Origin: Alkalilimnicola ehrlichii MLHE-1
GTDB taxonomy: Bacteria > Pseudomonadota > Gammaproteobacteria > Nitrococcales > Halorhodospiraceae
Length of the DNA stretch: 32,000 bases
Direction: 5' to 3'
Assembly (NCBI RefSeq): GCF_000014785.1
Contig: NC_008340.1
Location: 2,550,001 to 2,582,000, forward strand
The notes below the pieces were generated by a model, which was not told the DNA's origin, searched no databases, and saw nothing but the letters and a program-made list of their open reading frames with translations. Shown in pieces: positions 3,286 through 24,349 of the stretch. A program made the position numbers and the translations under genes. Position 1 is the first letter of the stretch. Every line of letters begins with the position of its first letter.

Positions 3286-3299
3286 CGGAGGGCGGCAAC

Positions 3300-4655
3300 A
3301 TGGCTGAGGGGCATATCGCCGTGGTCGGCGGCGGTGTTTCGGGACTGACTGCAGCCTGGCTCCTCAGCCGGCGCTATCGGGTCACGCTGTTCGAGCGCAA
3401 CGGCTACGTCGGCGGGCACACCCATACCGTGGAGGCCATGCTCCCCGAGGGCGCCGTCCCGGTGGATACCGGCTTTATTGTCTACAACGAGCCGAATTAC
3501 CCGGGGCTCACGGCACTCTTTCGCCACCTGGGGGTCCCCACCCGGCCCAGCGACATGTCCTTCGCGCTGTCGGTACTGGACGAGGACATCGAATGGTCGG
3601 GCGACAACCTGGGCACCCTGTTCGCCCGGCGCCGCCACCTGCTCAGCCCCCGCTTCCTGCGCATGGTCGTGGATATCCTGCGCTTCAACCGCCACGCCCG
3701 CGGCTACCTGCGCCGCGGCGTCCCGGAGCGGCTGACCCTCGGCGACTACCTGCGCGAGCGCGGCCTGGGGCGCGGTTTCACCGACCACTACCTGCTGCCC
3801 ATGGCGGCCGCCATCTGGTCCTGCCCCCAGGCCAGCCTGCACGAGTTCCCGCTGGCGCGCTTTCTGCGCTTTTTTGACCAGCACGGACTGATCCGACTCG
3901 GCAACCGACCGCAATGGCGCACCGTCCAGGGCGGCGGCCGCGAGTATGTCCAACGCATGCTGCCCGCCCTCCACGCCTACCATATCAACACCCCCGTGCG
4001 GCGGGTGCAGCGGACAACCGACGGCGTCACGCTCTTCGGTGATGGCGGGTGTCTCGGCCACTTCGACCAGGTGGTCCTGGGCGGGCACGCCGACGAGAGC
4101 CTGGCCATGCTGGCCCAGCCCAGTGACGACGAGGCCGCACTGCTCGGCCGTTTCCGTTACCAGAGCAACGAGGCCGTGCTGCACACCGATCCAGCCCTGA
4201 TGCCCCGCCGCCGCGCGATCTGGGCCAGCTGGAACCACCTGACGCGGCGGGACGAGGCGGGCCGGCAACCGGTCTCGGTCACCTATTGGATGAACCGCCT
4301 GCAAGGGCTCACCACCCATCGTGATCTGTTCGTCACCCTCAACCCCGCCATCCCGGTCCGGGAGGAGCAGGTGCTGCGGCGGATGCATTACAGTCACCCG
4401 GTGTTCGACCGTGATACCCACCGCGCACAACAGGGGCTGCCCCGTCTCCAGGGCCGGCGGCACACTTGGTTCTGCGGCAGCTATTTCGGCTATGGTTTCC
4501 ATGAGGACGGAGTGCAGTCCGCCGTCCGGGTGGCCTGGGGGCTGGGCGTCGCCGCGCCCTGGGCGACGACCACGACCGCCGACACCGCAACCGATATCGG
4601 CCCCGAGGGCACGCCCGACTGGGCCGTCGCCTGCGCGGGGGAGGAGCGGCGATGA
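3300..4655 (+). CDS. NAD(P)/FAD-dependent oxidoreductase (amine-oxidase / desaturase-like flavoprotein)
   Basis: 451 aa. The N-terminal dinucleotide-binding fingerprint is IAVVGGGVSGLTAAWLL...VTLFE. This family is commonly paired with Cfa-like methyltransferases. Its stop overlaps the next start (ATGA at 4652-4655). Confidence 0.8.
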   Translation: MAEGHIAVVGGGVSGLTAAWLLSRRYRVTLFERNGYVGGHTHTVEAMLPEGAVPVDTGFIVYNEPNYPGLTALFRHLGVPTRPSDMSFALSVLDEDIEWSGDNLGTLFARRRHLLSPRFLRMVVDILRFNRHARGYLRRGVPERLTLGDYLRERGLGRGFTDHYLLPMAAAIWSCPQASLHEFPLARFLRFFDQHGLIRLGNRPQWRTVQGGGREYVQRMLPALHAYHINTPVRRVQRTTDGVTLFGDGGCLGHFDQVVLGGHADESLAMLAQPSDDEAALLGRFRYQSNEAVLHTDPALMPRRRAIWASWNHLTRRDEAGRQPVSVTYWMNRLQGLTTHRDLFVTLNPAIPVREEQVLRRMHYSHPVFDRDTHRAQQGLPRLQGRRHTWFCGSYFGYGFHEDGVQSAVRVAWGLGVAAPWATTTTADTATDIGPEGTPDWAVACAGEERR

Positions 4656-5905
4656 CGGAACTTGGCCGCGGCGCCCGGCTGAGCGCACCGCTGCCCCGCA
4701 GCGTGCGGCCCATGGGCCGCTGGCTGCGGCGGCTGGCGGCGGGCACCCTGCACCTGCGCCTGCCCGGGGGCGAATCCATCACCGTCACCGCGCCGGCGCC
4801 CGGCCCGGAGGCCACCTGGGTGCTGCACCGGCCGCTGCGACTCATCCGCTGCCTGCTGCACCGCGGCGACCTGGGCCTGGCGGAGAGCTACATAGCCGGT
4901 GACTGGGACAGCCCGCAGACCGCCCGCCTGCTGGAGCTGCTCAACGCCAACCACAGCGCCTACAACTACCGGCTGCGTGGCCGCTGGCTAACCCGCCTGA
5001 CCCTGTGGCTGTTTCATCGCGCCCGGGCCAACACCCGGCGCGGCGCGCGGCGTAACATCATGGCCCACTACGACTTGGGCAATGCCTTTTACCGGCTCTG
5101 GCTGGACCCCGGCATGACCTACTCCGGCGCCTGGTACGCGGCCCCGGCCATGGACCTGGCACAGGCCCAGGACGCCAAATACACCGCCATCCTGCAGACG
5201 CTGGCGGCCCGGCCGGGGGAGCACGTGCTGGAGATCGGCTGCGGCTGGGGCGGGTTCGCGGAGGCGGCCGCCCGGGCCGGCCTGCGCGTCACCGGCGTCA
5301 CCCTCTCACCCAACCAACTGGCGTGGGCCCGGGAGCGCATCCGAAAGGCCGGGCTGGAGGACCGCGTGGTGCTGCGTCTGCAGGACTACCGGGCCCTGAG
5401 CGGGCAGTACGACCACGTGGTCTCGATCGAGATGTTCGAGGCCGTGGGCGAGGCCCACTGGCAGACCTGGTTCGAAACGGTGCACCGCTGCCTACGGCCG
5501 GGGGGGCGGGCGCTGGCGCAGATCATCACCATCCGCGAGGACGCCTTCGAGAGCTACCGCGCCCACCCGGATTTCATCCAGCGCTACATCTTCCCCGGCG
5601 GCATGCTGCCCAGCCGCAGCCACCTGCGAAGCCACGCCCGGGCGGCGGGGCTGGAAGTGGCCACCATGGCCGCGAGTGGCACCCACTACGCGCGCACCCT
5701 GGCCGACTGGGACGCCCGCTTCCAGGCGGCGACACCCGCCCTGGAGGCATTGGGCTTCGACCTCCGTTTCCGCCGTATGTGGCACTATTATCTGGCATAC
5801 TGCGAGGCAGGCTTCCGGTCCGGGCACATTGACCTGCAGCGACTGGTCATGCAGGTCTCTCCCTCCCCACCGCAACCGCGTTTGATCGCCGAGACACCAT
5901 GCTGA
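4652..5905 (+). CDS. cyclopropane-fatty-acyl-phospholipid synthase family SAM-dependent methyltransferase
   Basis: 417 aa. It has the SAM-binding motif VLEIGCGWGG, an N-terminal GDLGLAESYIAGDWD segment, and the C-terminal WHYYLAYCEAGF typical of the Cfa / mycolic-acid methyltransferase family. GGAGGAG precedes the ATG. Confidence 0.85.
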   Translation: MTELGRGARLSAPLPRSVRPMGRWLRRLAAGTLHLRLPGGESITVTAPAPGPEATWVLHRPLRLIRCLLHRGDLGLAESYIAGDWDSPQTARLLELLNANHSAYNYRLRGRWLTRLTLWLFHRARANTRRGARRNIMAHYDLGNAFYRLWLDPGMTYSGAWYAAPAMDLAQAQDAKYTAILQTLAARPGEHVLEIGCGWGGFAEAAARAGLRVTGVTLSPNQLAWARERIRKAGLEDRVVLRLQDYRALSGQYDHVVSIEMFEAVGEAHWQTWFETVHRCLRPGGRALAQIITIREDAFESYRAHPDFIQRYIFPGGMLPSRSHLRSHARAAGLEVATMAASGTHYARTLADWDARFQAATPALEALGFDLRFRRMWHYYLAYCEAGFRSGHIDLQRLVMQVSPSPPQPRLIAETPC

Positions 5906-9475: not shown

Positions 9476-9730
9476 CCCCGCCATCACAAGGCACCGGAGC
9501 CCCAAGCCCGTCATCGCGACGAGCGCCCCCTCCCCCGTCATCGCGAGGGCCGAAGGCTTTCCCCCCGTCATCGCGAGGGCCGAAGGCCCGTGGCGATCCA
9601 GGGCGGTAGACTGCCACGTCGGCTTCGCCTCCTCGCAGTGACAGTGGGGGCGGGTCCCCGCTCGCAGTGACAGTGGGGGTGGGTCCCCGCTCGCAGTGAC
9701 GGTGGGGGTGGCGCTTTCCGCCGTGACGGT
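9476..9730. repeat. REP/REPIN-like palindromic element cluster A: one full element flanked by extra half-sites on both sides
   Basis: The full element is gtcatcgcgagggccgaaggcccgtggcgatccagggcggtagactgccacgtcggcttcgcctcctcgcagtgac (about 9567-9642). Extra left heads sit near 9479, 9509 and 9536. Extra right heads end at 9671, 9700 and 9727. Confidence 0.85.
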
Positions 9731-9750
9731 GGGGCTGGGGCGGCCGCTGC

Positions 9751-10599
9751 TCAGGGGCCGACCATGCGGTTGCGCAGCGCGCCCAGCCCCTCGATCTCGC
9801 ACTCCACGACATCCCCCGGCTGCAGGTACTCCGGCGGCGTGCGGGCGAATCCGACGCCGGCCGGGGTGCCGGTGGCGATCATGTCTCCGGGCTGCAGGGT
9901 CATGACGCTGGAGAGCGTCGCGATGGTCTCGGCGATGGAGAACACCATCTGCCGGGTGTCACCGTCCTGCTTGAGATCGCCGTTGACGCGGCAGGTCAGA
10001 CGCAGTGCCTGCGGGTCCGGCACCGCATCGGCGGTGGTGATCCAGGGGCCCATGGGGCAACTGCCATCCATGGACTTGCCCAGGAAAAACTGCTTGTGCC
10101 GGAACTGCAGGTCACGGGCCGACAGGTCGTTGACCACCGTATAGCCGAAGACATGCTCCAGCGCCCGCGCCTGCGGGATATGCCGCCCGCCGCGGCCGAT
10201 CACCACCCCGAGTTCCACCTCCCAGTCCAGCTGTTCGGTGACCCGCGGGTCCACCCGCACATCGGCGTAGGGCCCGGTCACCGAGGTGGTGGCCTTGGTG
10301 AACACCACCGGCGCCTCCGGCAGCTTCCAGTCCCGGCCCTTTGCGGCCATGGACTCCTGCGCGTGGTCGGCGTAATTGAGCCCCAGACACATGACATTGC
10401 GCCGGGGCACCGGGAGGGGGGCCAGGAAGGTGACCCGGTCGGCGGGAATCGGCGCGGCATCGGCCTCACGGGGGGCCTCGCCGGATTCCAGCAGGGCCTG
10501 CACGCTGTCGTGACCGGCCAGCGGCGTGACCTGACGCCCATCCTCGCTGACGGCGACCGCGAGGGAACGCCCTTCGTGTTGCACGGTGGCGATACGCAT
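9751..10599 (-). CDS. fumarylacetoacetate hydrolase (FAH) family protein
   Basis: 282 aa with an ATG start and GGAGGA upstream. VMCLGLNYADHAQES and the C-terminal ...GDMIATGTPAGVG...LQPGDVVECEIEGLG are typical of FAH/FAHD-type hydrolases and decarboxylases. Confidence 0.85.
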   Translation of the reverse strand: MRIATVQHEGRSLAVAVSEDGRQVTPLAGHDSVQALLESGEAPREADAAPIPADRVTFLAPLPVPRRNVMCLGLNYADHAQESMAAKGRDWKLPEAPVVFTKATTSVTGPYADVRVDPRVTEQLDWEVELGVVIGRGGRHIPQARALEHVFGYTVVNDLSARDLQFRHKQFFLGKSMDGSCPMGPWITTADAVPDPQALRLTCRVNGDLKQDGDTRQMVFSIAETIATLSSVMTLQPGDMIATGTPAGVGFARTPPEYLQPGDVVECEIEGLGALRNRMVGP

Positions 10600-10633
10600 G
10601 ATGTCCTCCCGGGTTCGATGGTGCTCGGGGCGT

Positions 10634-11647
10634 TCAGCCGGCCGCCCGCATCATGGCCACGGCCGTGTCCAGCATGCGGTTGGCGAACCCCCACTCATTG
10701 TCGTACCAGGCGCAGATCTTCACCAGCCGTCCCTTCACCTTGGTGAGGGTGGCATCGAACACCGCCGAGGCCGGGTGGTGGTTGAAGTCGATGGAGACCA
10801 GCGGGTCGTCGTTCACCGCCAGGACCCCGGCCATGGGCCCGGCCGCGGCGGCGCGGATGATCTCGTGCACCTCCTCCACCGAGGTCGCCCGCCCGGCGTC
10901 GAAGGTCAGATCCACCAGCGAGACATTCAGCGTGGGCACGCGCATGGCGTAGCCATCCAGCCGCCCGGCCATCTCCGGCAGCACCAGCCCCAGTGCCCGG
11001 GTGGCCCCGGTCTTGGTGGGGACCTGGCTCAGGGTGGCCGAACGGGCCCGGCGCAAATCGGCATGGGGTGAATCGGTGAGCACTTGGTCGTTGGTGTAGG
11101 CGTGGATGGTGGTCAGCAGCCCCTGCTCGATGCCCAGCGCCCGGTGCAGCGGCTGCACGATGGGCGCCAGGCAGTTGGTGGTGCAGGAGGCGTTGGAGAC
11201 CACCGTGTGTTCGGCCCGCAGGATATCGTGATTGACCCCGTAACAGACGGTGGCGTCCACCTCCGGCCCGCCCGGCGCGGAGATCAGCACCTTGCGGGCA
11301 CCGGCCCGCAGGTGGCGCTCTGCCTGCTCGCGGCTGGCAAAGCGGCCGGTGCACTCCATGACCAGGTCCACCCCCAGCGCCTCCCAGGGCAGGCGATCCG
11401 GGTCACGTTCCGAGGTGTAGCGGATGCGGTCGCCGTTGACCACCAGCTCGCCCTCCCCGGTCTGCACATCGCCCGGGAACCGCCCGTGCGTGGTGTCGTG
11501 GCGGGTCAGATGGGCGGCCGTGCGCAGTTCGCACAGGTCGTTGACCGCCACGATACGCAGCTCATCGCTGCGCCCCGACTCATAGAGCGCCCGCAGAACG
11601 CCCCGCCCAATCCGGCCGTAGCCGTTGATCGCCACCTTGATGGCCAT
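10634..11647 (-). CDS. gap: type I glyceraldehyde-3-phosphate dehydrogenase
   Basis: 337 aa. It has [15 protein letters not shown] and the active-site [12 protein letters not shown]. It starts at ATG with GAGGGA upstream and lies downstream of tkt on the same strand. Confidence 0.93.
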
Positions 11648-11711
11648 AGTATCCCTCGTTCAACCCGAATGATTGCCCGCCGACCACCGCCGCAGGCCCC
11701 TTGGCGCCCCC

Positions 11712-11822
11712 TCCCCCCGTCATCGCGAGGGCCGAAGGCCCGTGGCGATCCAGAGGGGTAGACTGCCACGTCGGCTTCGCCTCCTCGCAGTGACGGGGCG
11801 GGCCCTCGCTCGCCGTAACCGT
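11712..11822. repeat. REP/REPIN-like element cluster B: one full 76-bp element plus a degenerate half-site
   Basis: Positions 11719-11794 read gtcatcgcgagggccgaaggcccgtggcgatccagaggggtagactgccacgtcggcttcgcctcctcgcagtgac. The degenerate ccctcgctcgccgtaacc follows. It lies between the tkt stop and the gap start. Confidence 0.85.
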
Positions 11823-11839
11823 TGGAGACTGGGCTGCGC

Positions 11840-13840
11840 TCAGATCACCGTGGTGCTGGCCTTGACCACCGCGTCGACGTTGATGCCGAAATGCTCGTAG
11901 AGTGCCGGCCCCGGTGCCGACTCGCCGAAGGTGTCGATGCCGATCACCCGGCCGCGGTCGCCCAGCAGCGCCTGCCAGGGCATCGGGTGGGCCGCCTCCA
12001 TGGCGATCACCGGCACCCCCGCCGGCAGCACCGCCTCGCGGTAGTCGGCCGGCTGCGACTGGAACACCTCCAGACAGGGCATGGACACCACCCGCACCCG
12101 CCGGCCCCGGTCGGCCAGCCGCTCGGCCGCCTCCACCATGATCGCCACCTCACTGCCGGTGGCCATCAGGATCAGCTCCGCCTCACCCTGCTTGGGCTCG
12201 GCCAGCACATAACCGCCGCGCCGAATCAACGCCACCTGCTCGTCGGTGCGCTGCTGCGCCACCAACCCCTGGCGCGAGAGCGCCAGCAGACTCGGCCCGT
12301 CACGGCGCTCCAGCGCCGCCTGCCACGCCGCCTGGGTCTCAATGGCATCGCACGGGCGCCAGACATCCAGCCCCGGGATCATGCGCAGACTCCCCAGATG
12401 CTCCACCGGCTGGTGGGTCGGGCCATCCTCGCCCAGACCGATAGAGTCGTGGGTGTGGACAAAGATCTGCTGTATGCCCATCAGCGCCGCCATGCGGATG
12501 GCGTTGCGCGCGTAATCGGAGAACACCAGAAAGGTGCCGGTGTAGGGGATGAACCCGCCGTGCAGCGCCAGCCCGTTGGCAATGGCGCTCATGCCGAACT
12601 CACGCACCCCGTAGTGGAGGTAATTGCCATCGGCGTCGGCCTTCGCCCCGCCGATCACCGCGCAGTCTTCCCACTTGGTGTTGTTGGAGCCGGACAGGTC
12701 CGCCGAGCCGCCGAGCAGCTCCGGCAGGTACGGCCCCAGCCGGTTGAGCGCCTGCTCCGAGGCCTTGCGCGTGGCCACCTTGGCCGACTCGTCCACCGCC
12801 TCGGCCAGCGCCTCCTCGGCGTGCTGGGCAAACCGCTCGGGCAGCGCGCCCTTCATCCGCCGCTCAAACTCCGCCGCCATCTCCGGGTGCGCCTTGCGGT
12901 AAGCGGCCAGCCGCTCGTGCCAGGCCGCCTCCAACTGCTTGCCGCGCGCCCGCGCATCCCACCCGCTGTAGATCTCGCGCGGGATCTCAAACGGCCCGTG
13001 CTCCCACTTCAGGAACTCGCGCGTGGCCTGGATCTCCTCATCGCCCAGCGGCGCACCGTGCACCCCGTGGGTGCCGCAGACGTTGGGCGCGCCAAAGCCG
13101 ATCACCGTCTTGCAGCAGATCAGGCTCGGCCGGTCGGTCACCGCACGCGCCTCATCAATGGCGCGCTTGATCGCCTCCGAATCGTGCCCGTCCACCTCGC
13201 GCACCACATGCCAGCCGTAAGCCTCAAACCGGCCCGGCGTATCGTCGGTGAACCAGCCCTCCACCTTGCCGTCAATGGAGATGCCGTTGTCGTCGTAAAA
13301 ACCGATCAGCTTGCCCAGCTTCCATGTGCCGGCCAGCGAGCAGGCCTCGTGACTCACCCCCTCCATCAGACAGCCATCGCCCAGGAAGCAGTAGGTCCAG
13401 TGATCCACCAGCTCGTGGCCCGGGCGGTTGAACTGCGCGGCCAGGGTGCGCTCGGCCAGCGCCAGCCCCACCGCGTTGGCCAGCCCCTGGCCCAGCGGCC
13501 CGGTGGTGGTCTCCACCCCCGCGGTGTAGCCGTACTCCGGGTGACCGGGGGTCCTGGAGTGCAGTTGGCGGAAGGCCTTCAGATCGTCAATGCCCAGCTC
13601 ATAGCCCGACAGGTGCAGCAGGCTGTAAAGCAGCATCGAGCCGTGACCGTTGGAGAGCACAAACCGGTCCCGGTCCCACCAGTGGGGGTTGGCCGGGTTG
13701 TGGCGCAGATAGTCGTTCCACAGCACTTCGGCAATATCCGCCATGCCCATGGGCGCGCCCGGGTGACCGGAATGGGCGCGCTGCACCGCGTCCATGGACA
13801 GGGCTCGGATGGCATTGGCCAGATCTCGGCGTGTGGGCAT
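11840..13840 (-). CDS. tkt: transketolase
   Basis: 666 aa: [41 protein letters not shown]..., followed by the ThDP-binding [13 protein letters not shown]. The match to the Tkt family runs the full length. Confidence 0.95.
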
Positions 13841-14034
13841 TACGGTTCCCCCGGGGTTGCATATAGATCAAGGGCGCTTATTGTCCTGTAGAGCCGGGTC
13901 GCCGGCAAGTTGGCGGGCCTCGCACTCACCGGGTGAGACCGCTACAATCGGCAGTTCGTCGAAAACGGCACCGCAAACACCCGTCGCGGCCACGCAACCG
14001 GGCGCGAGACAACCACAACACAGAGGAGCTTGGG

Positions 14035-15192
14035 GTGAGCGAATACCTGTTCACGTCAGAGTCGGTTTCCGAGGGCCATCCGGACAAGATGGCGGACCAG
14101 ATCTCCGACGCCGTGCTCGATGCCATCCTCGCCGAAGACCCCAGGGGCCGGATCGCCTGCGAGACGATGATCAAGACCGGAATCATCATCCTGGGCGGCG
14201 AGGTGACCACCTCGGCCAACATCGACTACGAGGCCGTGGCCCGGGAGACGGTCAAGCGCATCGGCTACAAACACCACGAGATGGGCTTCGATGGCGAGAC
14301 CTGCGGGGTCATCAACATCCTCGGCAAGCAGTCGGTGGACATCGCCCAGGGGGTCGACCGCGACCATCCGGAGGAACAGGGTGCCGGCGACCAGGGGCTG
14401 ATGTTCGGCTACGCCAGCAACGAGACCGATGTGCTGATGCCCGCCCCGATCACCTACGCCCACCGGCTGGTACAGCGCCAAGCGGAGGTGCGCTGTAACG
14501 GCCAGCTGCCCTGGCTGCGTCCGGATGCCAAGAGCCAGGTCACCCTGCGCTACGTGGACGGCCGCCCGGTGGCGGTGGACACGGTGGTGCTCTCCACCCA
14601 GCACGCCCCCGACCTCACCCAAGCCCAGGTGCACGAGGCGGTGATCGAGGAGATCATCAAGCCGGTATTGCCCGAGCAGTGGATCACCGGCGAGACCCGC
14701 TACCTGGTGAACCCCACCGGTCGCTTCGTGATCGGTGGCCCGGTGGGCGACTGCGGCCTGACCGGACGCAAGATCATTGTCGACACCTACGGCGGCATGG
14801 CCCGCCACGGCGGCGGCTGCTTCTCGGGCAAGGACCCGTCCAAGGTGGACCGCTCCGCCGCCTACGCCTGCCGCTACGTGGCCAAGAACATCGTCGCCGC
14901 AGGGCTCGCCGAGCGCTGTGAGATCCAGGTCTCCTACGCCATCGGCGTGGCCGAACCCACCTCCATCAGCGTGGAGACCTTCGGCACCGGCCGCGTGGAC
15001 AGCGAGAAGCTGACCCGCATCGTGCGCGAGCACTTCGACCTGCGCCCCTACGGCATCCTGAAGATGCTCGACCTGATCCGCCCGATCTACACCGCCACGG
15101 CCGCCTACGGCCACTTTGGCCGCGAGGACGAGGGCTTCCCCTGGGAGCGCATCGACCGCGCCGAGGAGATCCGCGACGCGGCCGGCCTGTAG
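14035..15192 (+). CDS. metK: S-adenosylmethionine synthetase
   Basis: I use the internal GTG at 14035 of track ORF 13933..15192, with AGGAG 7 nt upstream. The sequence is (M)[31 protein letters not shown]...[12 protein letters not shown]...[19 protein letters not shown]. Confidence 0.93.
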
Positions 15193-15213
15193 CGGGCAGA
15201 GCACCCGGCGCCG

Positions 15214-15290
15214 CCCCGAGGAGCGCTGCAACAGGGCCGCCGGCCCTGCCAGGCTCGGGGATGGCGCCCCATCGTTCCAACGGCGCTCAG
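15214..15290 (+). promoter_or_regulatory. SAH (S-adenosylhomocysteine) riboswitch in the ahcY leader
   Basis: CCCCGAGGAGCGCUGCAACAGGGCCGCCGGCCCUGCCAGGCUCGGGG...CCAACGGCGCUCAG. P1 pairs 15214-15220 with 15254-15260. The P2 hairpin pairs 15232-15238 with 15242-15248. The pseudoknot pairs GAGCGC 15221-15226 with GCGCUC 15283-15288. The GAGGAGCGCUGC / AGGCUCGG / AACGGCGCUC blocks match the SAH riboswitch consensus as I recall it, and the element sits in the usual position upstream of ahcY. Confidence 0.75.
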
Positions 15291-15309
15291 CGAAATCGGA
15301 GTCTGCACC

Positions 15310-16722
15310 ATGAATGCTGTCGTGGATACCAACGCCAACGACTACATCGTGCGCGACATCGGCCTCGCTGACTGGGGCCGTAAGGAAATCGCCATCGCCG
15401 AGACAGAGATGCCCGGCCTGATGGCGGTGCGCGAGGAATACCGCAACGAGCAGCCGCTCAAGGGCGCCCGCATCGCCGGGAGCCTGCACATGACCATCCA
15501 GACCGCCGTGCTCATTGAGGCGCTGATCGAGCTGGGGGCCGAGGTGCGCTGGGCGTCCTGCAACATCTACTCCACCCAGGATCACGCCGCCGCGGCCATC
15601 GCCGCCCAGGGCATCCCGGTGTTCGCCTACAAGGGCGAGACCCTGGATGAGTACTGGGACTACTGCCACCGGATCTTCGAGTTCGAGGGCGAGCCGGCCA
15701 ACATGATCCTCGACGACGGCGGCGATGCCACCCTGCTGCTCAACCTGGGCGCCAAAGCCGAGCAGGACGCCTCTGTGCTGGACAACCCGGGCAGCGACGA
15801 GGAAAAGGCCCTGTTCGTCGCCATCCGCAACCGCCTGGAGAGCCAGCCTGGTTGGTACAGCGAGCGGCTGGCCGCCATCCAGGGGGTCACCGAGGAGACC
15901 ACCACCGGCGTCAACCGCCTGGTGCGCATGGCCAACGAGGGCACCCTGCCCTTCCCCGCCATCAACGTGAACGACTCGGTCACCAAGTCCAAGTTCGACA
16001 ACCTCTACGGCTGCCGCGAATCGCTGCTGGACGGCATCAAGCGGGCCACCGACGTGATGATCGCCGGCAAGATCTGCGTGGTGGCGGGCTACGGCGACGT
16101 GGGCAAGGGCTGCGCCCAGAGCCTCCGCGGCCAGGGCGCCACCGTCTGGATCACCGAGATCGACCCCATCTGTGCCCTGCAGGCGGCCATGGAGGGCTAC
16201 CGGGTGGTCACCATGGACGAGGCCGCTGACAAGGCGGACATCTTCGTCACCGCCACCGGCAACTACCACGTGATCACCGGCGAACACCTGAGGGCGATGA
16301 AGCACAACGCCATCGTCTGCAACATCGGCCACTTCGACAACGAGATTGACGTGGCCAGCCTGCGCGACTGCGAGTGGGACAACATCAAGCCGCAGGTGGA
16401 CCACATCACCCTGCCCAGCGGCAACAAGATCATCCTGCTGGCCGAGGGCCGGCTGGTGAACCTGGGCTGCGCCACCGGGCACCCGAGCTTCGTGATGTCC
16501 AACTCCTTCACCAACCAGGTGTTGGCCCAAATCGAGCTGTTCGCCCACGGGGAGAAGTACGACAAGCAGGTCTACGTGCTGCCCAAGCACCTGGACGAGA
16601 AGGTCGCGCAGCTCCACCTGCAGAAGATCGGCGCACAACTGACAGCGCTGACCCCGGAACAGGCGGAATACATCGGCGTGCCGGTGGAGGGGCCTTACAA
16701 GCCGGAACACTACCGGTACTGA
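15310..16722 (+). CDS. ahcY: adenosylhomocysteinase
   Basis: 470 aa: [34 protein letters not shown]...[38 protein letters not shown]...HFDNEID. The match to AhcY runs the full length. Confidence 0.95.
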
Positions 16723-16731
16723 CGGGGGACC

Positions 16732-17525
16732 GTCACTGCGAGGAGGCGAAGCCGACGTGGCAGTCTACCGCCCTGGATCGCCACGGGCCTGCGGCCCTCG
16801 CGATGACGGGGGTGGCGCCCCACCGTCACTGCGAGGAGGCGAAGCCGACGCGGCAGTCTACCGCCCTGGATCGCCACGGGCCTGCGGCCCTCGCGATGAC
16901 GGGGGTGGCGCCCCCACCGTCACTGCGAGGAGGCGAAGCCGACGCGGCAGTCCACCGCCCTGGATCGCCACGGGCCTGCGGCCCTCGCGATGACGGGGGT
17001 GGCGCCCCACCGTCACTGCGAGGAGGCGAAGCCGACGCGGCAGTCTACCGCCCTGGATCGCCACGGGCCTGCGGCCCTCGCGATGACGGGGGTGGCGCCC
17101 CCACCGTCACTGCGAGGAGGCGAAGCCGACGCGGCAGTCCACCGCCCTGGATCGCCACGGGCCTGCGGCCCTCGCGATGACGGGGGTGGCGCCCCACCGT
17201 CACTGCGAGGAGGCGAAGCCGACGCGGCAGTCCACCGCCCTGGATCGCCACGGGCCTGCGGCCCTCGCGATGACGGGGGTGGCGCCCCACCGTCACTGCG
17301 AGGAGGCGAAGCCGACGCGGCAGTCTACCGCCCTGGATCGCCACGGGCCTGCGGCCCTCGCGATGACGGGGGTGGCGCCCCCACCGTCACTGCGAGGAGG
17401 CGAAGCCGACGCGGCAGTCTACCGCCCTGGATCGCCACGGGCCTGCGGCCCTCGCGATGACGGGAGGAAGCCTTCGCCTTCGGGATGACGAAGGAAAACA
17501 TTCGGCCCTCGGGATGACGGTGGCG
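16732..17525. repeat. tandem array of 8 near-identical 93/94-bp units (77-bp palindromic element plus 16/17-bp linker), followed by degenerate half-sites
   Basis: Unit starts (gtcactgcgagg) are at 16732, 16825, 16919, 17012, 17106, 17199, 17292 and 17386. The last unit ends about 17462. The degenerate tail (cttcgggatgacg, cctcgggatgacgg) runs to about 17525. The track ORFs across it change frame only after the three 94-bp units, exactly as expected from 93/94-bp units. Confidence 0.92.
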
Positions 17526-17553
17526 GCGCCCCCGTTTGAAAACAGCCCTCAGC

Positions 17554-18423
17554 ATGGAACAATCTCAGACGATGGAATCCCAGAAACAACACCCCCCGGT
17601 CTACAGCTGCGAGTTCTTCCCCCCGCGCACCGAGCAGGGGGTGGAGAAGCTACGTACCACCCGTGAGCGCCTCGCGCGCCTGAACCCGGCCTACTTCTCG
17701 GTGACCTTCGGCGCCGGCGGCTCCACCCGCGACCGCACCTACGAGACGGTCACCGAGATCCAGCGCAGCGGCCTGGAGGCCGCGCCGCACATCTCCTGCA
17801 TCGGCTCCACCCGGGAGAGCATCCGCGAGCTGCTGCACGGCTATCGGGAACAGGGCATCCGCCGCATCGTCGCCCTGCGCGGCGACATGCCCTCCGGCAC
17901 CCGCGACGTAGGCGAGTTCCGCTACGCCAACGAACTGGTGGCCTTCATCCGCGCGGAGACCGGCGACCACTTCCACATCGAGGTGGCCTGCTACCCGGAG
18001 TTCCACCCGCAGGCCCGCGACGCCGAGGCCGACATGGACAACTTCGCCCGCAAGGTCGAGGCCGGGGCCGACGCCGCCATCACCCAGTACTTCTTCAACG
18101 CCGACGCCTACTTTCACTTCGTCGGCCAAGCGGAGAAACGGGGCGTGACCCTCCCCATCGTCCCGGGCATCATGCCCATCATCAACTTCACCCAGCTGGC
18201 CCGCTTCTCCGACGCCTGCGGCGCCGAGATCCCGCGCTGGCTGCGCAAGCGGCTGGAGGCCTATGGCGACGACAAGGCCGCCATCCAGGCCCTGGGCCAT
18301 GAGGTGGTGCGGGATCTCTGCCAGCGGCTACTGGACGGCGGCGCCCCGGGGCTGCATTTTTACAGCATGAACCAGGCGCGCCCGGTGGAGCGCCTGTGGG
18401 CCGACCTGCAGCTCCCCCGCTGA
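17554..18423 (+). CDS. metF: 5,10-methylenetetrahydrofolate reductase
   Basis: The track ORF 17536..18423 starts at TTG. I use the first ATG at 17554 (alternative 17572), and no strong SD is visible. The sequence is YSCEFFPPRTEQGVEKL...FSVTFGAGGSTRDRTYE...EAAPHISCIG...IVALRGD...ITQYFFNAD...HFYSMNQA. Confidence 0.88.
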   Translation: MEQSQTMESQKQHPPVYSCEFFPPRTEQGVEKLRTTRERLARLNPAYFSVTFGAGGSTRDRTYETVTEIQRSGLEAAPHISCIGSTRESIRELLHGYREQGIRRIVALRGDMPSGTRDVGEFRYANELVAFIRAETGDHFHIEVACYPEFHPQARDAEADMDNFARKVEAGADAAITQYFFNADAYFHFVGQAEKRGVTLPIVPGIMPIINFTQLARFSDACGAEIPRWLRKRLEAYGDDKAAIQALGHEVVRDLCQRLLDGGAPGLHFYSMNQARPVERLWADLQLPR

Positions 18424-18473
18424 GCGGATGGAGCCGTCCGCCCACGGCCAAACCGGGCATTGGGGGGCGCGCA

Positions 18474-18959
18474 ATGACCGGAAAGGCAGCCAAACGTCTC
18501 TGGGTCGGCTGGCGGGAGTGGATCGCCCTGCCCGCCCTGGGCATCGACCGCATCAAGGCCAAGGTGGACACCGGCGCGGCCACCTCCGCGCTGCACGCCA
18601 TCCACCTGCACCGCTTCCGTGAGGGCGGGCGGGATCGGGTGGTGTTCCAGGTGCACCCGATCCAGCGGGACGCCCACACCACCCGGGACTGCGTGGCCGA
18701 CCTGCTGGACGAGCGGGTGGTCACCAGCTCCACCGGCCACCGGGAGCGGCGCCTGGTGATCCGCACCCCCTTGCAAATCGGCGATCAGCGCTGGAATATC
18801 GAACTGACGCTGACCAACCGGGACAGCATGGGCTTTCGCATGCTCATCGGCCGCCGCGCCATGCGCGGCCACCTGTTGGTGGACCCCAGCCGCTCCTATC
18901 TGGGCGGTATCGAGCAGCACACCCCGGGCCCCCGACGCAGCCCCACATCCCGCAAATGA
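18474..18959 (+). CDS. RimK-associated retropepsin-like / 'ATP-dependent zinc protease' family protein (RimB-like, DUF785)
   Basis: I use the internal ATG at 18474 of track ORF 18396..18959. The sequence is [42 protein letters not shown]...[12 protein letters not shown]. The DTGA motif is present. The stop overlaps the rimK ORF start (ATGA at 18956-18959). Confidence 0.7.
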
Positions 18960-19891
18960 GTGAGCCCGCAGGCATGCCCGAAGCGATGAACATCCTGATC
19001 CTGTCGCGCAACAGCCGGCTCTACTCCACCCGGCGTCTGGTCGAGGCGGGGCGCGAGCGCGGTCACCAGGTCCGGGTGGTGGACCCACTGCGCTGTTACA
19101 TGAACATCAGCCCCCACAAGCCCGAGATCCATTACAAGGGCGAGACGCTGGAGAACTTCGACGGCGTGATCCCCCGGATTGGGGCCTCCATCACCTTCTA
19201 CGGCACGGCCGTGTTGCGCCAGTTCGAGATAATGGGCACCTTCCCGCTCAACGAGTCGGTGGCCATCAGCCGCTCCCGCGACAAACTGCGCTCCACGCAA
19301 CTGCTGGCGCGCAAGGGGATCGGCCTGCCGATGACCACTTTCGGCTACTCGCCTGACGACACCGAGGACCTGATCAACCTGGTGGGCGGCCCGCCCATGG
19401 TCATCAAGCTGCTGGAGGGCACCCAGGGCAAGGGGGTGGTGCTGGCCGAGACCCAGCAGGCGGCGGAGAGCCTGATCGATGCCTTCCGTGGGCTAAATGT
19501 GCACTTCCTGGCCCAGGAGTACATCAAGGAGGCCGGGGGCTCGGACATCCGCTGCTTCGTGGTGGGCGAGCGGGTGGTGGCCTCCATGCGCCGACAGGCC
19601 AAGGAAGGGGAGTTCCGCTCGAACATCCACCGCGGCGGCCAGGCGAGCACGGTGCGTATCACCCCCGAGGAGCGCAGCATGGCGGTGCGTGCCGCCCGCA
19701 TCATGGGCTTGAACGTGGCCGGTGTGGACCTCATCCGCTCCGCCCATGGCTCGCTGGTGCTGGAGGTGAACTCATCGCCCGGGCTGGAGGGCATCGAGAA
19801 GGCCACCGGCAAGGACATCGCCGGCACCATCTACGCTTTCCTGGAGAAGAACGCCCGCCAGGGCAAGACCCGGACCCGGGGCCGCGGCTAG
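18956..19891 (+). CDS. rimK: ribosomal protein S6 L-glutamate ligase (ATP-grasp)
   Basis: 311-aa ORF. From the ATG at 18986 it reads [41 protein letters not shown], co-linear with E. coli RimK as I recall it. The true start is therefore either 18956 (coupled ATGA) or 18986. Confidence 0.9.
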
Positions 19892-19935
19892 CGTTACGGC
19901 GGGACCGGACGAACGCCCGGCCCCGCGTGCCCCTA

Positions 19936-20988
19936 TTACCGGGCGGGGATGATCGGATCGTCCTCGTCCGGTCCCTCGCCGCTGACCAGACGCGCCTGGG
20001 CCAGGTTCTCCCCCACCAGGGTCTCGATCTCCAGCACGCCCTTCACCGCCCCGGGCACCCAGGCCACCGGGCGACCGCTGGGTGAGCGGATCACCCGGCT
20101 GCCGTCACGCACCTGCAGGCTCATGCCCTCGCTCAGACCGGCGGCCTGGCCGGCGCCGAGGAAATAGACGCCCTCCTCCTCGGCAAAGCTGCGGGTGAAC
20201 CAGGGGGCGTTGCCCATGCGGTCCATCATGCCCAGGAGTACCCGGTCGGCGTAGGCCTCCAGCGCCGGGCGGGCCACCTGACCGTCCACGGCCGGCAGTT
20301 CCACCGCGCTACCGGCGTACTCGGCGTCCAGGCCGACATCGAAGGTGGTGGTGCGCAGGCGTACCGCATCCTCGCCCCGTGGCTCGACCTCGATCAGCGC
20401 GAGCATCCGCAGTCCGGGATACCGGGACAGCCCGGCCAGGCAGTCACTAACCTCCCCCGCCGTGCAGCCGTAGTCAGCAATCTGGGAGCGCACCAGCTCG
20501 CTGCCGGAGAAGAGCAGTGGGTAGTCCCGGGAGACCCCGGCCAGCGCATTGCCCAGGCGGGTCTCCAGGCCGCCGTCCGGCGTCTGGATGATGACCCCCA
20601 CGTGGGGCAGCAGCGCCCCTTCCGGCCGCTGTGCCGGCCGGTGCACCCCGCGCTCGGTGCCCTCCGCGGCCAGCGCCTGTTGCTGCAGCGACCGCTCCAG
20701 CTGCTGGATCCGCTGCTCCAGGGCCTGCTCGCGCTCACTGTCATCGGGCCCACCGCGGCCGAACAGCCGGTCCAGCAGCGGACGCTCATCGCGCTCGGCC
20801 TCGTCCTGCTCCTCACACTGCTCCGGCCAGAAGACGCAGGTCAAAACGCCCTTGCGCTCGAACTCGTGATCCCAGGGGGTGCGCTGTTCACGCTCGGGCG
20901 GTTGCACCCCACCCGTACCGCAGCCCGCCAACAGGGCAAGGGAAAGCAATAAAACAACGAGAGACAACAGCTTGCGCGAGACGGACAT
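19936..20988 (-). CDS. hypothetical lipoprotein (350 aa)
   Basis: I use the internal ATG at 20988 of track ORF 19936..21192. The lipoprotein signal MSVSRKLLSLVVLLLSLALLAGC has an LAGC lipobox. An acidic, coiled-coil-like segment follows (EREQALEQRIQQLERSLQQQALAAEG), then a globular C-terminal part. I recognise no family. The upstream 68 codons of the ORF run into the repeat cluster. Confidence 0.6.
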   Translation of the reverse strand: MSVSRKLLSLVVLLLSLALLAGCGTGGVQPPEREQRTPWDHEFERKGVLTCVFWPEQCEEQDEAERDERPLLDRLFGRGGPDDSEREQALEQRIQQLERSLQQQALAAEGTERGVHRPAQRPEGALLPHVGVIIQTPDGGLETRLGNALAGVSRDYPLLFSGSELVRSQIADYGCTAGEVSDCLAGLSRYPGLRMLALIEVEPRGEDAVRLRTTTFDVGLDAEYAGSAVELPAVDGQVARPALEAYADRVLLGMMDRMGNAPWFTRSFAEEEGVYFLGAGQAAGLSEGMSLQVRDGSRVIRSPSGRPVAWVPGAVKGVLEIETLVGENLAQARLVSGEGPDEDDPIIPAR

Positions 20989-21104
20989 GTTCACCTGGCC
21001 GGGTTGTGGGGAGTGATGATGACAGCCGACAAGGTTAAGCCGGTGCCGGCGTCTCGGCAAGCCTGTTGGAGCACTTGATCGAGCGGGAAGGGCCCGCCGC
21101 CCCC

Positions 21105-21512
21105 ACTCCCACTGCGAGCCCTCGCCCCCATCACCCGTCACTGCGGGCCCCCGAAGGGGACGCGGCAGTCCAGGCCGCGTGTGGATTGCCACGTCGCTTC
21201 GCTCCTCGCAATGACGGGGTGGTGACCCCCACCGTCATCGCGAGCCCCGACCTATCACCCGTCACTGCGAGCCCCAACCCATCACCCGTCACTGCGAGCC
21301 CCAACCCATCACCCGTCACTGCGAGGAGCGAAGCGACGTGGCAGTCTACCCCTCTGGATGGCCACGGGCCTTCGGCCCTCGCGATGACGGGGAGGAGGTG
21401 GACGGCCTCGCGGTAACGGGGGTACGCCGTTCTTCCTTGATTCGGGCCCGCGCAGCCGGGGGGGTGAGGCTCGCGATGACGGTGCGAAAAGCTTCCGGGC
21501 TCGTGAGGACGG
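21105..21512. repeat. REP/REPIN-like element cluster D: two full elements, a 27-bp-period head array, and degenerate half-sites
   Basis: A variant full element spans 21137-21215 (gtcactgcgggcccccgaaggggacgcggcagtcc...ctcgcaatgac). Heads sit at 21234, 21261, 21288 and 21315, a 27-bp period. A full element spans 21315-21388. Half-sites lie near 21408, 21469 and 21498. Confidence 0.85.
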
Positions 21513-21536
21513 AAAATGCCGTTATGCAGCCAACCG

Positions 21537-22187
21537 TCAGAACGGCTCGGGGATGCCGATGGCCTCGTCCCAGCGGTTGACGATGCCGCAGAACAGGTCC
21601 GCCGTCTTCTCCGCATCGTAGATCGCCGAGTGGGCCGCCTTGCCGTCCCACTCCTCGCCCGAGGCCACCAGGGCCTTGGCCAGCACGGTCTGACCGTAGG
21701 CCAGCCCGGCCAGGGTCGCGGTGTCGAAACTGGTGAAGGGGTGGAAGGGATTGCGCTTGATGCCGCAACGCTGCACCGCCGCGTTCAGGAACCCCAGGTC
21801 AAAAAAGCTGTTGTGGCCGATGAGCACGGCCCGGTTGCACCCGGTCTGACGCACCTCCTGGCGGATCGGCCGGAAGACCTTCTTCAGCGCCTCGTCCTCC
21901 GGCAGGGCCATGCGCAGCGGGTGGTCCGGATCGATCCCGTTCAGTTCCAGGGCCTTGGGGTCGATATTGGCGCCCTCGAAGGGCTTCACATGGCAAGTGT
22001 GGGTCGCGGCCGGGTAGAGCCGCCCGTTCTCGTCCATGCGCAGCACCACGGCCGCGATCTGCAGCAGCGCATCCGTCGCCGCATTGAGCCCGCCGGTCTC
22101 CACATCCACCACCACGGGCAGGAAGCCACGGAACCGCTTGCTGATGCGCTGGCTGAAGTTGGTGCCTACCGGGTTGGGTTCACTCAT
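21537..22187 (-). CDS. rnt: ribonuclease T (DEDDh 3'-5' exonuclease)
   Basis: I use the internal ATG at 22187 of track ORF 21537..22505. The sequence is [47 protein letters not shown]...[16 protein letters not shown]...[14 protein letters not shown]. The upstream part of the ORF is repeat-derived. Confidence 0.9.
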
Positions 22188-22267
22188 CTCGCTCTCGGAC
22201 CGGGGGTGAACCGGCCATCTTAAGCACCCAGGGGAAGGGCTGCAAGCGGCGGGGAGGCACCACCTCC

Positions 22268-22735
22268 CGTCATGGCAAGGGCCGAAGGCTTTCCCCCCGT
22301 CATCGCGAGGGCCGAAGGCCCGTGGCGATCCCGAGGGGTAGACTGCCACGTCGGCTTCGCCTCCTCGCAGTGACGGTGGGGGCAACCTTCCGCTTCCGGC
22401 ACAGTCCAGTTCTTCAAGAGGAGCGCAGCGACGTGGTGATCCACACCCCGCCTGGACTGCCTGCCACGCCCCTGCGGGGGCTCGCAGTGACGGTGGAGGC
22501 GGCACCCACCCCCGTCATCGCCAGGAGCGAAGCGACACGGCGATCCACACCCCGCCATGGACTGCCACGCCCCTACGGGGCTCGCAGTGACGGTGGGGCG
22601 GCACCACTCCCCGTCATCGCGAGGAGCGCAGCGACGTGGCGATCCAGACGCCGCATGGACTGCCACGCCCCCTTCGGGGGCTCGCAGTGACGGGTGATGG
22701 GGGCGGGGGCTCGCGGTGACGGGTGATGGGCGGGG
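22268..22735. repeat. REP/REPIN-like element cluster E: one canonical element plus three elements of a second subtype, and half-sites
   Basis: The canonical element spans 22299-22374. Subtype-2 elements span 22418-22491 (left head missing), 22514-22591 and 22613-22691 (gtcatcgcgaggagcgcagcgacgtggcgatccagacgccgcatggactgccacgcccccttcgggggctcgcagtgac). A half-site ctcgcggtgac lies near 22713. Confidence 0.85.
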
Positions 22736-22750
22736 GCGCACGCCCGGTTT

Positions 22751-24349
22751 TCAGGCCGGGCTCAGGGCCGCCGCCAGCAGGCGTTGGGTGTAGGGGTGCT
22801 CGGGGCGCTCGAAGACCCGGTCGGCGTCGCCCGACTCGACCACCTGGCCGTCCTTCATGACGATGATGTGGTGCGCGAGCGCCCGCACCACCTTCAGGTC
22901 GTGGCTGATGAAGAGATAGGCCAGCCGGTGGCGCGCCTGTAACTCGCGCAGCAACGCCACCATGCGCGCCTGCACCGAGCGATCCAACGCCGAGGTGGGC
23001 TCGTCGAGCACGATCAGCTTGGGCTTGAGCACCAGCGCCCGGGCCAGCGCCACCCGCTGGCGCTGGCCGCCGGAGAGCTCGTGGGGGTAGCGGTTCATCA
23101 CCGCCTCCGGCAGCCCCACCTCCGCCAGGGCCTGCCCGATCAGCCGGTGGCGCTCCGCCTCTCCCATGCCCGGGGCATGCACCTCCAGGCCCTCGGCGAC
23201 GATCTGCGCTACCGACAGCCGCGGGCTGAGGCTACCGTAGGGGTCCTGGAAGACCATCTGCATGCCCTTGCGCAGGGGCCGCAGCGCCTTGGGCTTCAGC
23301 CGCGAGATGTCGCGGCCGTCGAACACCACCCGCCCCTGCGCCGCCAGCAGCCGCAACACCGCCTGGGCCAGGGTGGTCTTGCCGGAGCCGCTCTCCCCCA
23401 CCACACCGATGGTCTGCCCCGGGGCCAGGGCCAGATCCACGCCGTCTACCGCCTTCACATAGCTCTGCACCCGGCGCAGGAAGCCCCCGCGCACCGGGAA
23501 GTGCACCTTGACCGCGTCGGCGGTCAGCACCGGCCCCTGCCCCCCGGGCACCGGCACCGGCCGGCCGGCGGGCTCGGCCTCGATCAGCTCACGGGTGTAG
23601 GGGTGGCCGGGGCTGTGGAAGAGCGTCTCGGCGGGGGCGGCCTCCAGCAGCTCACCATCGCGCATGACCGCGATGCGGTCGGCCATGTGGCGCACCACGT
23701 TCAGGTCGTGACTGATCAGCAGCACCGCCATGTTGAAGCGCCGCTGCAGGTCGCGGATGAGCTGCAGGATCTCCGCCTGCACGGTCACGTCCAGCGCCGT
23801 GGTCGGCTCGTCGGCGATCAGCAGCCTCGGGTTGTTGGCCAGGGCCATGGCGATCATCACCCGCTGGCGCTGGCCGCCGGAGAGTTCGTGGGGGAAGCTG
23901 CGGATCTGGCGCACCGGGTCGGGCAGCTGCACCAGATCCAACAGCTCCAGGATGCGCCGCCGGGCCCGGGCACCGGTCAATCCCTGGTGGATGCGCAGGG
24001 TCTCGCCGATCTGGCGGTCGACCCGGTGCAATGGGTTCAGGGAGGTGAGCGGCTCCTGAAAGATCACCCCGATGGGCCCGCCGCGCAGGTGACGGAGCAC
24101 CGCATCGGGGGCGCCGAGGATCTCCTCACCCTCGAAACGGATGCTGCCCCCCGGGTGCCACGCGCGCGGATAGGGCAATAACCCCAGCACCGAGAGCGCC
24201 GAGACCGACTTGCCGGAGCCGCTCTCGCCCACCAGGGCCAGGGTCTCACCGGCGTCCACCCGCCAGCTCACACCGCGCACGGCGCGGATCTCCCGGCCTT
24301 CCGAGCGGAAACTCACTTGCAGGTCCCGGACCTCCAGCAACGCACTCAT
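22751..24349 (-). CDS. yejF: ABC transporter ATP-binding protein with duplicated ATPase domains (YejF-like, peptide/microcin C-type importer)
   Basis: 532 aa. There are two Walker A sites (GESGSGKS and GESGSGKT) and two LSGGQRQR signatures. Its ATG overlaps the yejE stop. Confidence 0.88.
   Translation of the reverse strand: MSALLEVRDLQVSFRSEGREIRAVRGVSWRVDAGETLALVGESGSGKSVSALSVLGLLPYPRAWHPGGSIRFEGEEILGAPDAVLRHLRGGPIGVIFQEPLTSLNPLHRVDRQIGETLRIHQGLTGARARRRILELLDLVQLPDPVRQIRSFPHELSGGQRQRVMIAMALANNPRLLIADEPTTALDVTVQAEILQLIRDLQRRFNMAVLLISHDLNVVRHMADRIAVMRDGELLEAAPAETLFHSPGHPYTRELIEAEPAGRPVPVPGGQGPVLTADAVKVHFPVRGGFLRRVQSYVKAVDGVDLALAPGQTIGVVGESGSGKTTLAQAVLRLLAAQGRVVFDGRDISRLKPKALRPLRKGMQMVFQDPYGSLSPRLSVAQIVAEGLEVHAPGMGEAERHRLIGQALAEVGLPEAVMNRYPHELSGGQRQRVALARALVLKPKLIVLDEPTSALDRSVQARMVALLRELQARHRLAYLFISHDLKVVRALAHHIIVMKDGQVVESGDADRVFERPEHPYTQRLLAAALSPA

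Follow-up and report, generated by a model that had tools for sequence, protein, structure and literature searches.

Two described groups of bacterial repeats come closest to the elements considered here, a family of 74-79-bp palindromic repeats in a 32,000-nucleotide stretch of the Alkalilimnicola ehrlichii MLHE-1 chromosome (NC_008340.1, positions 2,550,001 to 2,582,000; the whole of this stretch is called the window below, and positions are counted from its first nucleotide). The first group is that of the CGTC-tagged repetitive extragenic palindromes (REPs), which consist of an unpaired CGTC or TGTC tag, an 8-9-bp stem opening with an A-T pair, a 4-5-nt loop and a CCA tail, and which mostly occur as inverted dimers, often heterodimers, between unidirectional and convergent open reading frames (ORFs) (Di Nocera 2013, PMC3733652). 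Their families, CGTC-1 to CGTC-4, include Neisseria dRS3 (CGTC-1) and Rickettsia RPE-4 and RPE-6. According to the same study these repeats 'apparently lack a dedicated transposase', and no tyrosine transposase is flanked by them (PMC3733652).

The second group was described by Chenal in 2025. The NTS repeat, a longer form of dRS3 (CGTCATTCCCGCGMAVGCGGGAATCYRG), is the binding site of SsnA, a GIY-YIG nuclease of 94 aa with a single domain. The enzyme cleaves upstream of the motif, at a distance of a few nucleotides, acts on single-stranded DNA (ssDNA) only and has no action on RNA (PMC11893778). The GTC before the NTS stem is required for cleavage and the C just past the stem for binding; the loop tolerates removal, replacement or extension. 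Nuclease activity is lost in the SsnA mutants Y6A, Y17A and E64A. Homologues of SsnA cut hairpins that flank their own genes, termed Ssn-related motifs (SRM), again in ssDNA only, and the NTS-ssnA-NTS layout has been likened to an insertion sequence (PMC11893778).

We find that the window elements are a structural variant of this CGTC-REP/SRM kind, and that the A. ehrlichii genome encodes an SsnA homologue whose gene (ssn) adjoins such elements. The repeat class and its enzyme are already published; the useful additions made here are an extended subtype, a very wide distribution, units that carry the gene in a loop, and polymorphism between strains. We consider it probable that the window elements are inverted pairs of CGTC-tagged Ssn-related hairpins, in an extended-loop variant, served by the Ssn nuclease of their genome.

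Distribution of the repeat family in the window

The first-pass annotation of the window had counted by hand about 37 exact copies of an 11-nt motif, GTCAYYGCGAG (the 'head'), together with several one-mismatch copies, all in five intergenic clusters, and had put the chance expectation at about 0.06. A motif scan of both strands bears this out: there are 37 exact matches, all confined to the clusters at 9476-9730, 11712-11822, 16732-17525, 21105-21512 and 22268-22735, which sum to ~2.0 kb or 6% of the window. Dinucleotide-preserving shuffles contain 0.14 matches on average, and at most 2, per 32-kb window on both strands, so the count is indeed far above chance. When up to one mismatch is allowed there are 43 matches, compared with 3.7 expected, and the single match outside the clusters, at 18468, has one mismatch and is probably due to chance.

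The clusters hold 15 full elements, each an inverted heterodimer, and ~11 further units that consist of a head without a 3′ arm. Full elements are of two types with a common frame and exchanged local hairpins: type A is 76 bp long (74 bp in one copy) and type B 78-79 bp. In cluster 3, between ahcY and metF, 7.9 copies follow one another in a true tandem array whose period is 93 bp and 94 bp by turns; the array begins 9 bp 3′ of the ahcY stop. Neither this array nor the head-only units had been remarked on in the first-pass annotation. The head-only units form mini-arrays with a 27-30-bp period (the 11-nt head plus 16-18 nt) at 9632-9711, 17446-17520, 21232-21325 and 22675-22737, and similar mini-arrays occur at 5389-5457 and 5636-5733 of a locus (L243) of a second strain. 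Such units are unable to form the hairpin described below, and always border a full element on its outer side.

The earlier expectation that annotation pipelines would mis-call the repeats as proteins did not hold, since the gene calls of two A. ehrlichii assemblies place no coding sequence within any cluster; long spurious ORFs do run through the clusters. The elements do break short-read assemblies: a Logan contig (SRR32708590) stops 35 bp past ahcY, where the array begins.

The conserved unit is the half-element hairpin

Each element consists of two inverted hairpin monomers, with tags pointing outward and tails inward. A half-element reads, in order, a CGTC tag, A-Y-Y-G-C, GAG, a small GC-rich hairpin (GGCGAAGCC, GGGCCGMAGGCCC, CCCCCGAAGGGGG or GCGMAGC), a few bases, G-C-R-R-T (the 'core') and C. 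Head and core form an outer stem of 5 bp whose first pair is A-T, followed by an internal loop and the nested hairpin, with 28-30 nt between the stem ends. Three kinds of monomer are named here after the two variable head positions: CT (ACTGC...GCAGT), TC (ATCGC...GCGAT) and TT (ATTGC...GCAAT). In all 30 complete monomers of the window the core RR is complementary to the head YY of its own half, GTC lies directly 5′ of the palindrome, and the base right after the stem is C. The full tag is CGTC in 29/30 and TGTC in the remaining one. Tails read CCA on TC monomers and CTA or CCA on CT monomers.

This anatomy accounts for the 'polarity' of the elements, which the first-pass annotation had correctly noted as a conserved 2-nt asymmetry between the two heads, with one variant. 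Every full element joins a CT head to a TC head, except that at 21136-21216, which joins CT to TT. Pairing of head with head, or of core with core, therefore always includes one mismatch and one wobble, whereas each head pairs perfectly with its own core.

The same distinction is seen well beyond the window. Among 268 distinct elements from many phyla, the head/core combinations TT/AA (205), TC/GA (119) and CT/AG (101) predominate, and crossed combinations are nearly absent. In asymmetric elements, the core of the same half forms Watson-Crick pairs with the head at both positions in 225/276 monomers, and the core of the other half does so in just 6/276. A covariation count on 130 de-duplicated monomers, in which 3/5 pairs are fixed by the procedure used to extract monomers, found 42 double-sided changes between head and own-half core, compared with 19.6±3.2 after shuffling. 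None of 500 shuffles reached 42, and slid controls gave 0-11. Furthermore, the minimum-energy ssDNA structure is the outer stem plus inner hairpin for 3/4 monomer types. Because both covariation and monomer folding favour head-core pairing within a half, the conserved functional unit is the half-element hairpin. The architecture proposed earlier, with a terminal stem formed by the two heads and a central GTGGC...GCCAC stem, is retained only to the extent that the head-head stem is the thermodynamic optimum; covariation backs neither this stem nor the core-core one.

Comparison with known repeats

The window elements have much in common with CGTC-tagged REPs: an unpaired CGTC or TGTC tag (30/30), an A-T first stem pair, a CCA-like tail, organization as inverted heterodimers, location in unidirectional or convergent gaps, and the lack of a transposase nearby. 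On the other hand, clusters are called rare among CGTC REPs but dominate in the window, and the class is mainly alphaproteobacterial, whereas the host of the window is a gammaproteobacterium. With NTS and SRM the elements share the CGTC tag 5′ of a hairpin, the A...T opening of the stem, the C directly past the stem, clustered intergenic copies that probably run to hundreds, and a gene for a single-domain GIY-YIG protein of 94-95 aa with the motif on its flanks, in an insertion-sequence-like motif-gene-motif layout. They differ in that NTS has a 9-bp stem and a 3-nt loop, in place of a 5-bp stem with a nested GC-rich hairpin, and in that the window monomers almost always occur as 74-79-bp inverted CT-plus-TC heterodimers and in long tandem arrays. 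Since the bipartite stem, nested hairpin, obligate heterodimers and long arrays depart from the published definitions, the elements are a variant of this kind and not members of families CGTC-1 to CGTC-4.

The first-pass annotation had instead seen a REP/REPIN-type family, which would suggest classical elements mobilized by a REP-associated tyrosine transposase (RAYT) whose gene lies elsewhere in the genome. REPs, REPINs and BIMEs are reportedly associated with RAYTs (Nunvar in 2010, Bertels and Rainey in 2011). The comparison is apt as far as it concerns inverted, extragenic doublets, capable of forming long hairpins, of hairpin monomers that carry a short unpaired tag at the 5′ end, in mosaic BIME-like clusters of dynamic copy number, with a single-copy partner gene that has repeats on its flanks. 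In addition, on the strand complementary to the type-A CT monomer, GTAG (GTGG in three array copies) abuts the stem, for example at 16858-16866, which resembles the GTAG/GTGG tag of REPs. This GTAG is probably a coincidence, since type B, TC monomers and the TT class found across bacteria all lack it. The tag of every monomer is of the CGTC type, and in every lineage that we examined it is ssn, encoding a hydrolytic GIY-YIG nuclease and not an HUH tyrosine transposase, that is flanked by heads. Such a partner offers no cut-and-rejoin transposition chemistry. The first-pass annotation saw no RAYT gene in the window, and a phmmer search with a single E. coli RayT sequence, which is not exhaustive, likewise found no RAYT-like ORF in the window or in 242 related loci (~1.7 Mb). 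Nor is a tyrosine transposase flanked by CGTC repeats in the survey by Di Nocera (PMC3733652). We therefore regard mobilization by a RAYT as very unlikely.

At the Rfam gathering threshold the window contains only an S-adenosylhomocysteine (SAH) riboswitch, with no family on the elements; a permissive Rfam search of the array produced only noise (miRNA and snoRNA matches with E > 0.1), and a search of 18 related loci found no family covering the elements. Searching the literature for the head strings retrieved unrelated primers only.

An SsnA homologue in A. ehrlichii

A. ehrlichii MLHE-1 encodes, on its 3,275,944-bp chromosome, a protein of 95 aa (P0131) whose sole domain is GIY-YIG (PF01541) and which is annotated as 'GIY-YIG nuclease family protein'. 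We recovered it by querying with the protein from locus L139, a high-GC contig on which elements of the A. ehrlichii CT/TC type lie on both sides of a GIY-YIG gene. P0131 aligns without gaps to the SsnA orthologue of N. gonorrhoeae at 60% identity (BLASTP E 3e-42, tblastn E 8e-31), and its Y7, Y18 and E65 align with Y6, Y17 and E64 of SsnA. The gonococcal orthologue itself has 94 aa, retains Y6, Y17 and E64, and is encoded by a gene flanked by NTS repeats. In a plasmid collection, chromosomes of N. gonorrhoeae (2.17 Mb; NZ_CP119140.1) are labelled plasmids and are almost without annotation. P0131 is a homologue in the sense used by Chenal for SsnA homologues in genomes (a single-domain GIY-YIG protein of ~94 aa with tblastn E<1e-10). 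PADLOC and NCBIfam have no model dedicated to nucleases of this type, and the nearest solved structure is that of the UPF0213 protein BH0048, at an E-value of just 0.002.

In the second A. ehrlichii strain (CP184336.1), a half-element begins ~20 bp 3′ of the ssn stop and is followed by a 500-bp cluster of 13 heads, in which two type-A elements are identical to ones in the window. A second cluster lies ~0.9 kb upstream of ssn, past tauE. If the two strains are colinear, ssn would be located ~18 kb past the window's right end. The gene lies just 3′ of JetC/JetD-like (Wadjet) genes and the TauE gene, and is followed by genes for trigger factor, clpP and clpX (L243 1-5288, corresponding to CP184336.1 2100980-2106267).

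Elements and ssn genes in other lineages

A scan for paired heads (head-N50-62-head) in one genome per species returned at least 120 matches. The matches listed include Alphaproteobacteria (Bradyrhizobium and sphingomonads), Gamma-, Beta- and Deltaproteobacteria, and also Bacteroidota, Chloroflexota, Cyanobacteria, Planctomycetota, Omnitrophota and candidate phyla. These listed elements have a common frame, mostly with TT heads: GTCATTGCGAG, hairpin, GAAGCAATCC ... GGATTGCTTC, hairpin, CTCGCAATGAC. A scan of metagenomes for the CT...TC combination likewise gave at least 120 matches. Element-bearing loci with a small GIY-YIG gene flanked by elements are L111, L068, L229, L123 and L139.

To these can be added six lineages that were picked on protein similarity alone, namely A. 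ehrlichii, Thioalkalivibrio, an Ottowia-like group, Solimonas, the L269 group and Cellulophaga. Heads lie 3-109 bp from ssn in 6/6 of them. In Thioalkalivibrio, the Ottowia-like group and L269, and in L123 and L229 from the element scan, ssn lies between two monomers that point towards it, and in these loci the gene thus occupies the central loop of an element. At locus L253, elements without ssn and the ssn-bearing unit have a leader of ~25 nt and a trailer in common. T. nitratireducens has two identical ssn copies (L250 and L251) that are 22 kb apart, at ~693.6 and ~715.6 kb of CP003989.2; each lies within CT/TC element arrays with ~94-bp spacing, and toxin-antitoxin genes surround them.

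Two of these loci have features of their own. In an Omnitrophota genome (L068, 3800-4500), an ssn homologue is flanked by a related repeat class with the same frame and different stem bases (GTC-ATTCT-GAG...AGAAT-CC and GG-ATCCT...AGGAT-GAC), in which each head is compensated in its own half. In Cellulophaga lytica (L268, 1-3288), the ssn homologue lies between hsdS and hsdR, within an operon for type I restriction-modification; the stop of this homologue overlaps with the start of hsdR, and the elements are just upstream of ssn.

Variation between strains

The flanks of the elements are 99.2-99.9% identical between the window and CP184336.1, and yet the element content differs in clusters 1, 2 and 3. 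Clusters 1 and 2 each have one full element in the window and three in CP184336.1. The ahcY-metF array has 8 copies in the window, 3 in CP184336.1 and 9 in a third assembly. Cluster 4 is the same in both strains. Since copy number varies between nearly identical strains, the element family is dynamic. The window segment from ~3255 to 5720, with an amine-oxidase-like gene (3300-4655) and a gene resembling cyclopropane-fatty-acyl-phospholipid synthase (4652-5905), is missing from CP184336.1 except for a retained fragment, and no heads occur at its junctions.

These strain data bear on two explanations that do without Ssn. The elements' size of ~76 bp and their terminal inverted heads would fit a MITE (miniature inverted-repeat transposable element) moved by a DDE-type transposase. 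However, comparison of the strains reveals no target-site duplication at the polymorphic sites, and clustering of neighbouring genes at 120 element-bearing loci yielded generic families only, with no transposase family enriched; this clustering had low power because partner genes are single-copy. Moreover, the two ends consistently differ from one another, and each shows covariation with a site inside the element, unlike terminal inverted repeats. A DDE-type MITE is thus extremely improbable.

Alternatively, the elements could be passive palindromic satellites that change by slippage and unequal recombination only, with no protein partner and with a merely coincidental closeness to ssn. Tandem arrays and 27-30-bp mini-arrays are indeed present, and recombination between direct copies could explain the strain differences. 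However, slippage and recombination would not be expected to keep a tag-stem-C design across many phyla with compensatory changes, or to place heads within 109 bp of ssn in all six lineages picked by protein, given the rarity of heads in shuffled sequence. We consider this explanation quite unlikely.

Gene context and a possible role in RNA

Every cluster sits 3′ of a stop codon, either in a co-directional gap (tkt/gap, ahcY/metF, yejF/rnt and rnt/350-aa gene) or in a convergent one (58-aa ORF/FAH hydrolase), and the motif scan of the window found zero heads in the divergent regions at 3172-3299 and 13841-14034. The gene calls and placement given in the first-pass annotation are therefore correct. 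This placement raises the question of whether the elements act mainly as RNA, in the form of 3′-end hairpins that terminate transcription or shield mRNA from exonucleases, with the link to the nuclease being secondary. Both strands of the elements can form stable hairpins, and a similar placement bias reported for REPs was read as evidence of transcription (PMC3733652). Nevertheless, a terminator scan finds no site resembling an intrinsic terminator (no T tract) in any cluster, no Rfam family matches the elements of the window or of the 18 related loci, and both orientations relative to transcription are found among the elements. Arrays of 3-9 copies, head-only units and a tight link to a DNA nuclease gene would also be unexpected for an RNA element, and SsnA is inactive on RNA (PMC11893778). 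A function mainly as RNA is therefore unlikely, and an RNA role is possible as a side effect of the elements.

Proposed mechanism

Several observations count against the view that the window elements are Ssn-related hairpins served by an Ssn nuclease. The published SRM pattern, HGTCWYN(0-2)YYVSBRHN(0-5)WNVSBRGN(0-2)RNCYNB, has 0 matches in the window and overlaps 0/281 full elements. The 8-9-bp stem and 4-5-nt loop of CGTC REPs contrast with the bipartite 5-bp stem and large interior of the window monomers, and for a whole element the long head-head hairpin (-22.8 kcal/mol) is computed to be optimal, ahead of two half-hairpins. In A. ehrlichii itself the elements directly adjoin ssn at its 3′ side only, the 5′ cluster being past tauE. 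The head-only mini-arrays are left unaccounted for by a model based on Ssn and hairpins. In N. meningitidis, activity was abolished when the stem was given another sequence with the hairpin preserved (PMC11893778), so that the action of one enzyme on both CT and TC stems is an assumption. Finally, a hydrolytic GIY-YIG nuclease is unable to rejoin DNA, which leaves the mobility step as a proposal.

With these reservations, the characterized SsnA homologues suggest how the system may work. By analogy with them, P0131 would bind the monomer hairpin in ssDNA only and would nick the DNA 5′ of the CGTC tag, a few nucleotides away. As a dimer presents one sense monomer per strand, either strand could be cut when exposed during replication, repair or DNA uptake. 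The 76-bp dimers would be gene-less counterparts of an SRM-ssn-SRM unit that carries ssn in its central loop. Nicks made by Ssn and repaired by recombination between copies, or by copying, would probably lead to spread, clustering and copy-number change, and the placement relative to genes may reflect where insertions are tolerated.

A more specific version of this route seems to us possible but rather doubtful: the 74-79-bp dimers may derive from a selfish SRM-ssn-SRM unit in the manner of MITEs, as non-autonomous copies that multiply by GIY-YIG nicks in ssDNA followed by copying or recombination. They resemble MITEs, and the PATEs of IS200/IS605, in being short gene-less copies with both ends of a longer gene-bearing unit (at L253, with its leader and trailer too). 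They differ from these in having no transposase and no target duplication, and in that their ends are hairpins recognized in ssDNA instead of double-stranded terminal repeats.

Annotated features of the window

Coordinates of the elements and of neighbouring genes are collected in Table 1. Directly upstream of ahcY, at 15212-15295 (+), is the SAH riboswitch (RF01057, 69.7 bits). In the metK-ahcY-[array]-metF layout, the 0.8-kb array parts two genes of the methyl cycle, and a promoter-like site follows right after it, at 17536-17563.

Table 1. Repeat units and neighbouring genes in the window.
Feature	Coordinates	Strand
Cluster 1: two head-only units, TC heads (head at 9509-9520 with 1 mismatch)	9509-9547	+
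Cluster 1: full type-A element; TC monomer on + strand 9566-9598, CT monomer on - strand 9609-9643, TGTC tag	9566-9643	-
Cluster 1: two head-only CT units within the 29-bp mini-array 9632-9711	9661-9701	-
Cluster 2: lone full type-A element between tkt and gap	11718-11795	-
Cluster 3: eight tandem 76-bp type-A elements, 17-18-bp spacers	16731-17462	+
Example CT monomer, CGTC-ACTGC-GAGGAG-GCGAAGC-CGACGCG-GCAGT-C	16824-16858	+
Example TC monomer, CGTC-ATCGC-GAG-GGCCGCAGGCC-CGTG-GCGAT-C	16869-16901	-
Degenerate head remnants, 28-bp mini-array (head at 17508 with 1 mismatch)	17463-17525	-
Cluster 4: 79-bp element; CT monomer (head with 1 mismatch) and TT monomer GTCATTGCGAG...GGCAATCC	21136-21216	+
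Cluster 4: three head-only units, 27-bp period	21233-21298	+
Cluster 4: 74-bp full element; core of TC monomer with 1 mismatch (GCCAT)	21314-21389	+
Cluster 4: two head-only units (that at 21407 with 1 mismatch)	21407-21481	-
Cluster 5: degenerate head fragment (22268-22297), then full type-A element (22298-22375)	22268-22375	-
Cluster 5: truncated type-B element; CT monomer complete (22455-22492), partner headless	22414-22492	-
Cluster 5: full type-B element, 78 bp; TC head with 1 mismatch	22513-22592	-
Cluster 5: full type-B element, 79 bp	22612-22692	-
Cluster 5: head-only unit, CC head, 30 bp from yejF stop	22710-22721	-
FAH-family hydrolase	9751-10599	-
gap/epd	10634-11647	-
tkt	11840-13840	-
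ahcY	15310-16722	+
metF	17536-18423	+
rimK	18956-19891	+
rnt	~21537-22190	-
yejF	22751-24349	-

Implications

The framework set out here joins a descriptive class, the CGTC-tagged REPs, to a recently found enzyme family, the Ssn nucleases of ssDNA, and it covers a hitherto unannotated 6% of the window as well as similar elements of many bacterial phyla. As a very widespread subtype escapes the published motif definition, surveys that use this definition under-count Ssn-linked repeats. The A. ehrlichii strains, with 3, 8 and 9 array copies, and the gene-in-loop units together provide a test system for Ssn-driven repeat spread, and the new pairs of Ssn and hairpin are candidate reagents for site-specific cutting of ssDNA. 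If the dimers were MITE-like derivatives of an SRM-ssn-SRM unit, they would represent a transposase-free proliferation of repeats, which would answer the question left in 2013 of why no dedicated transposase is seen for CGTC repeats, and the compensatory CT/AG and TC/GA stems would mean that these two positions are read as structure and not as sequence.

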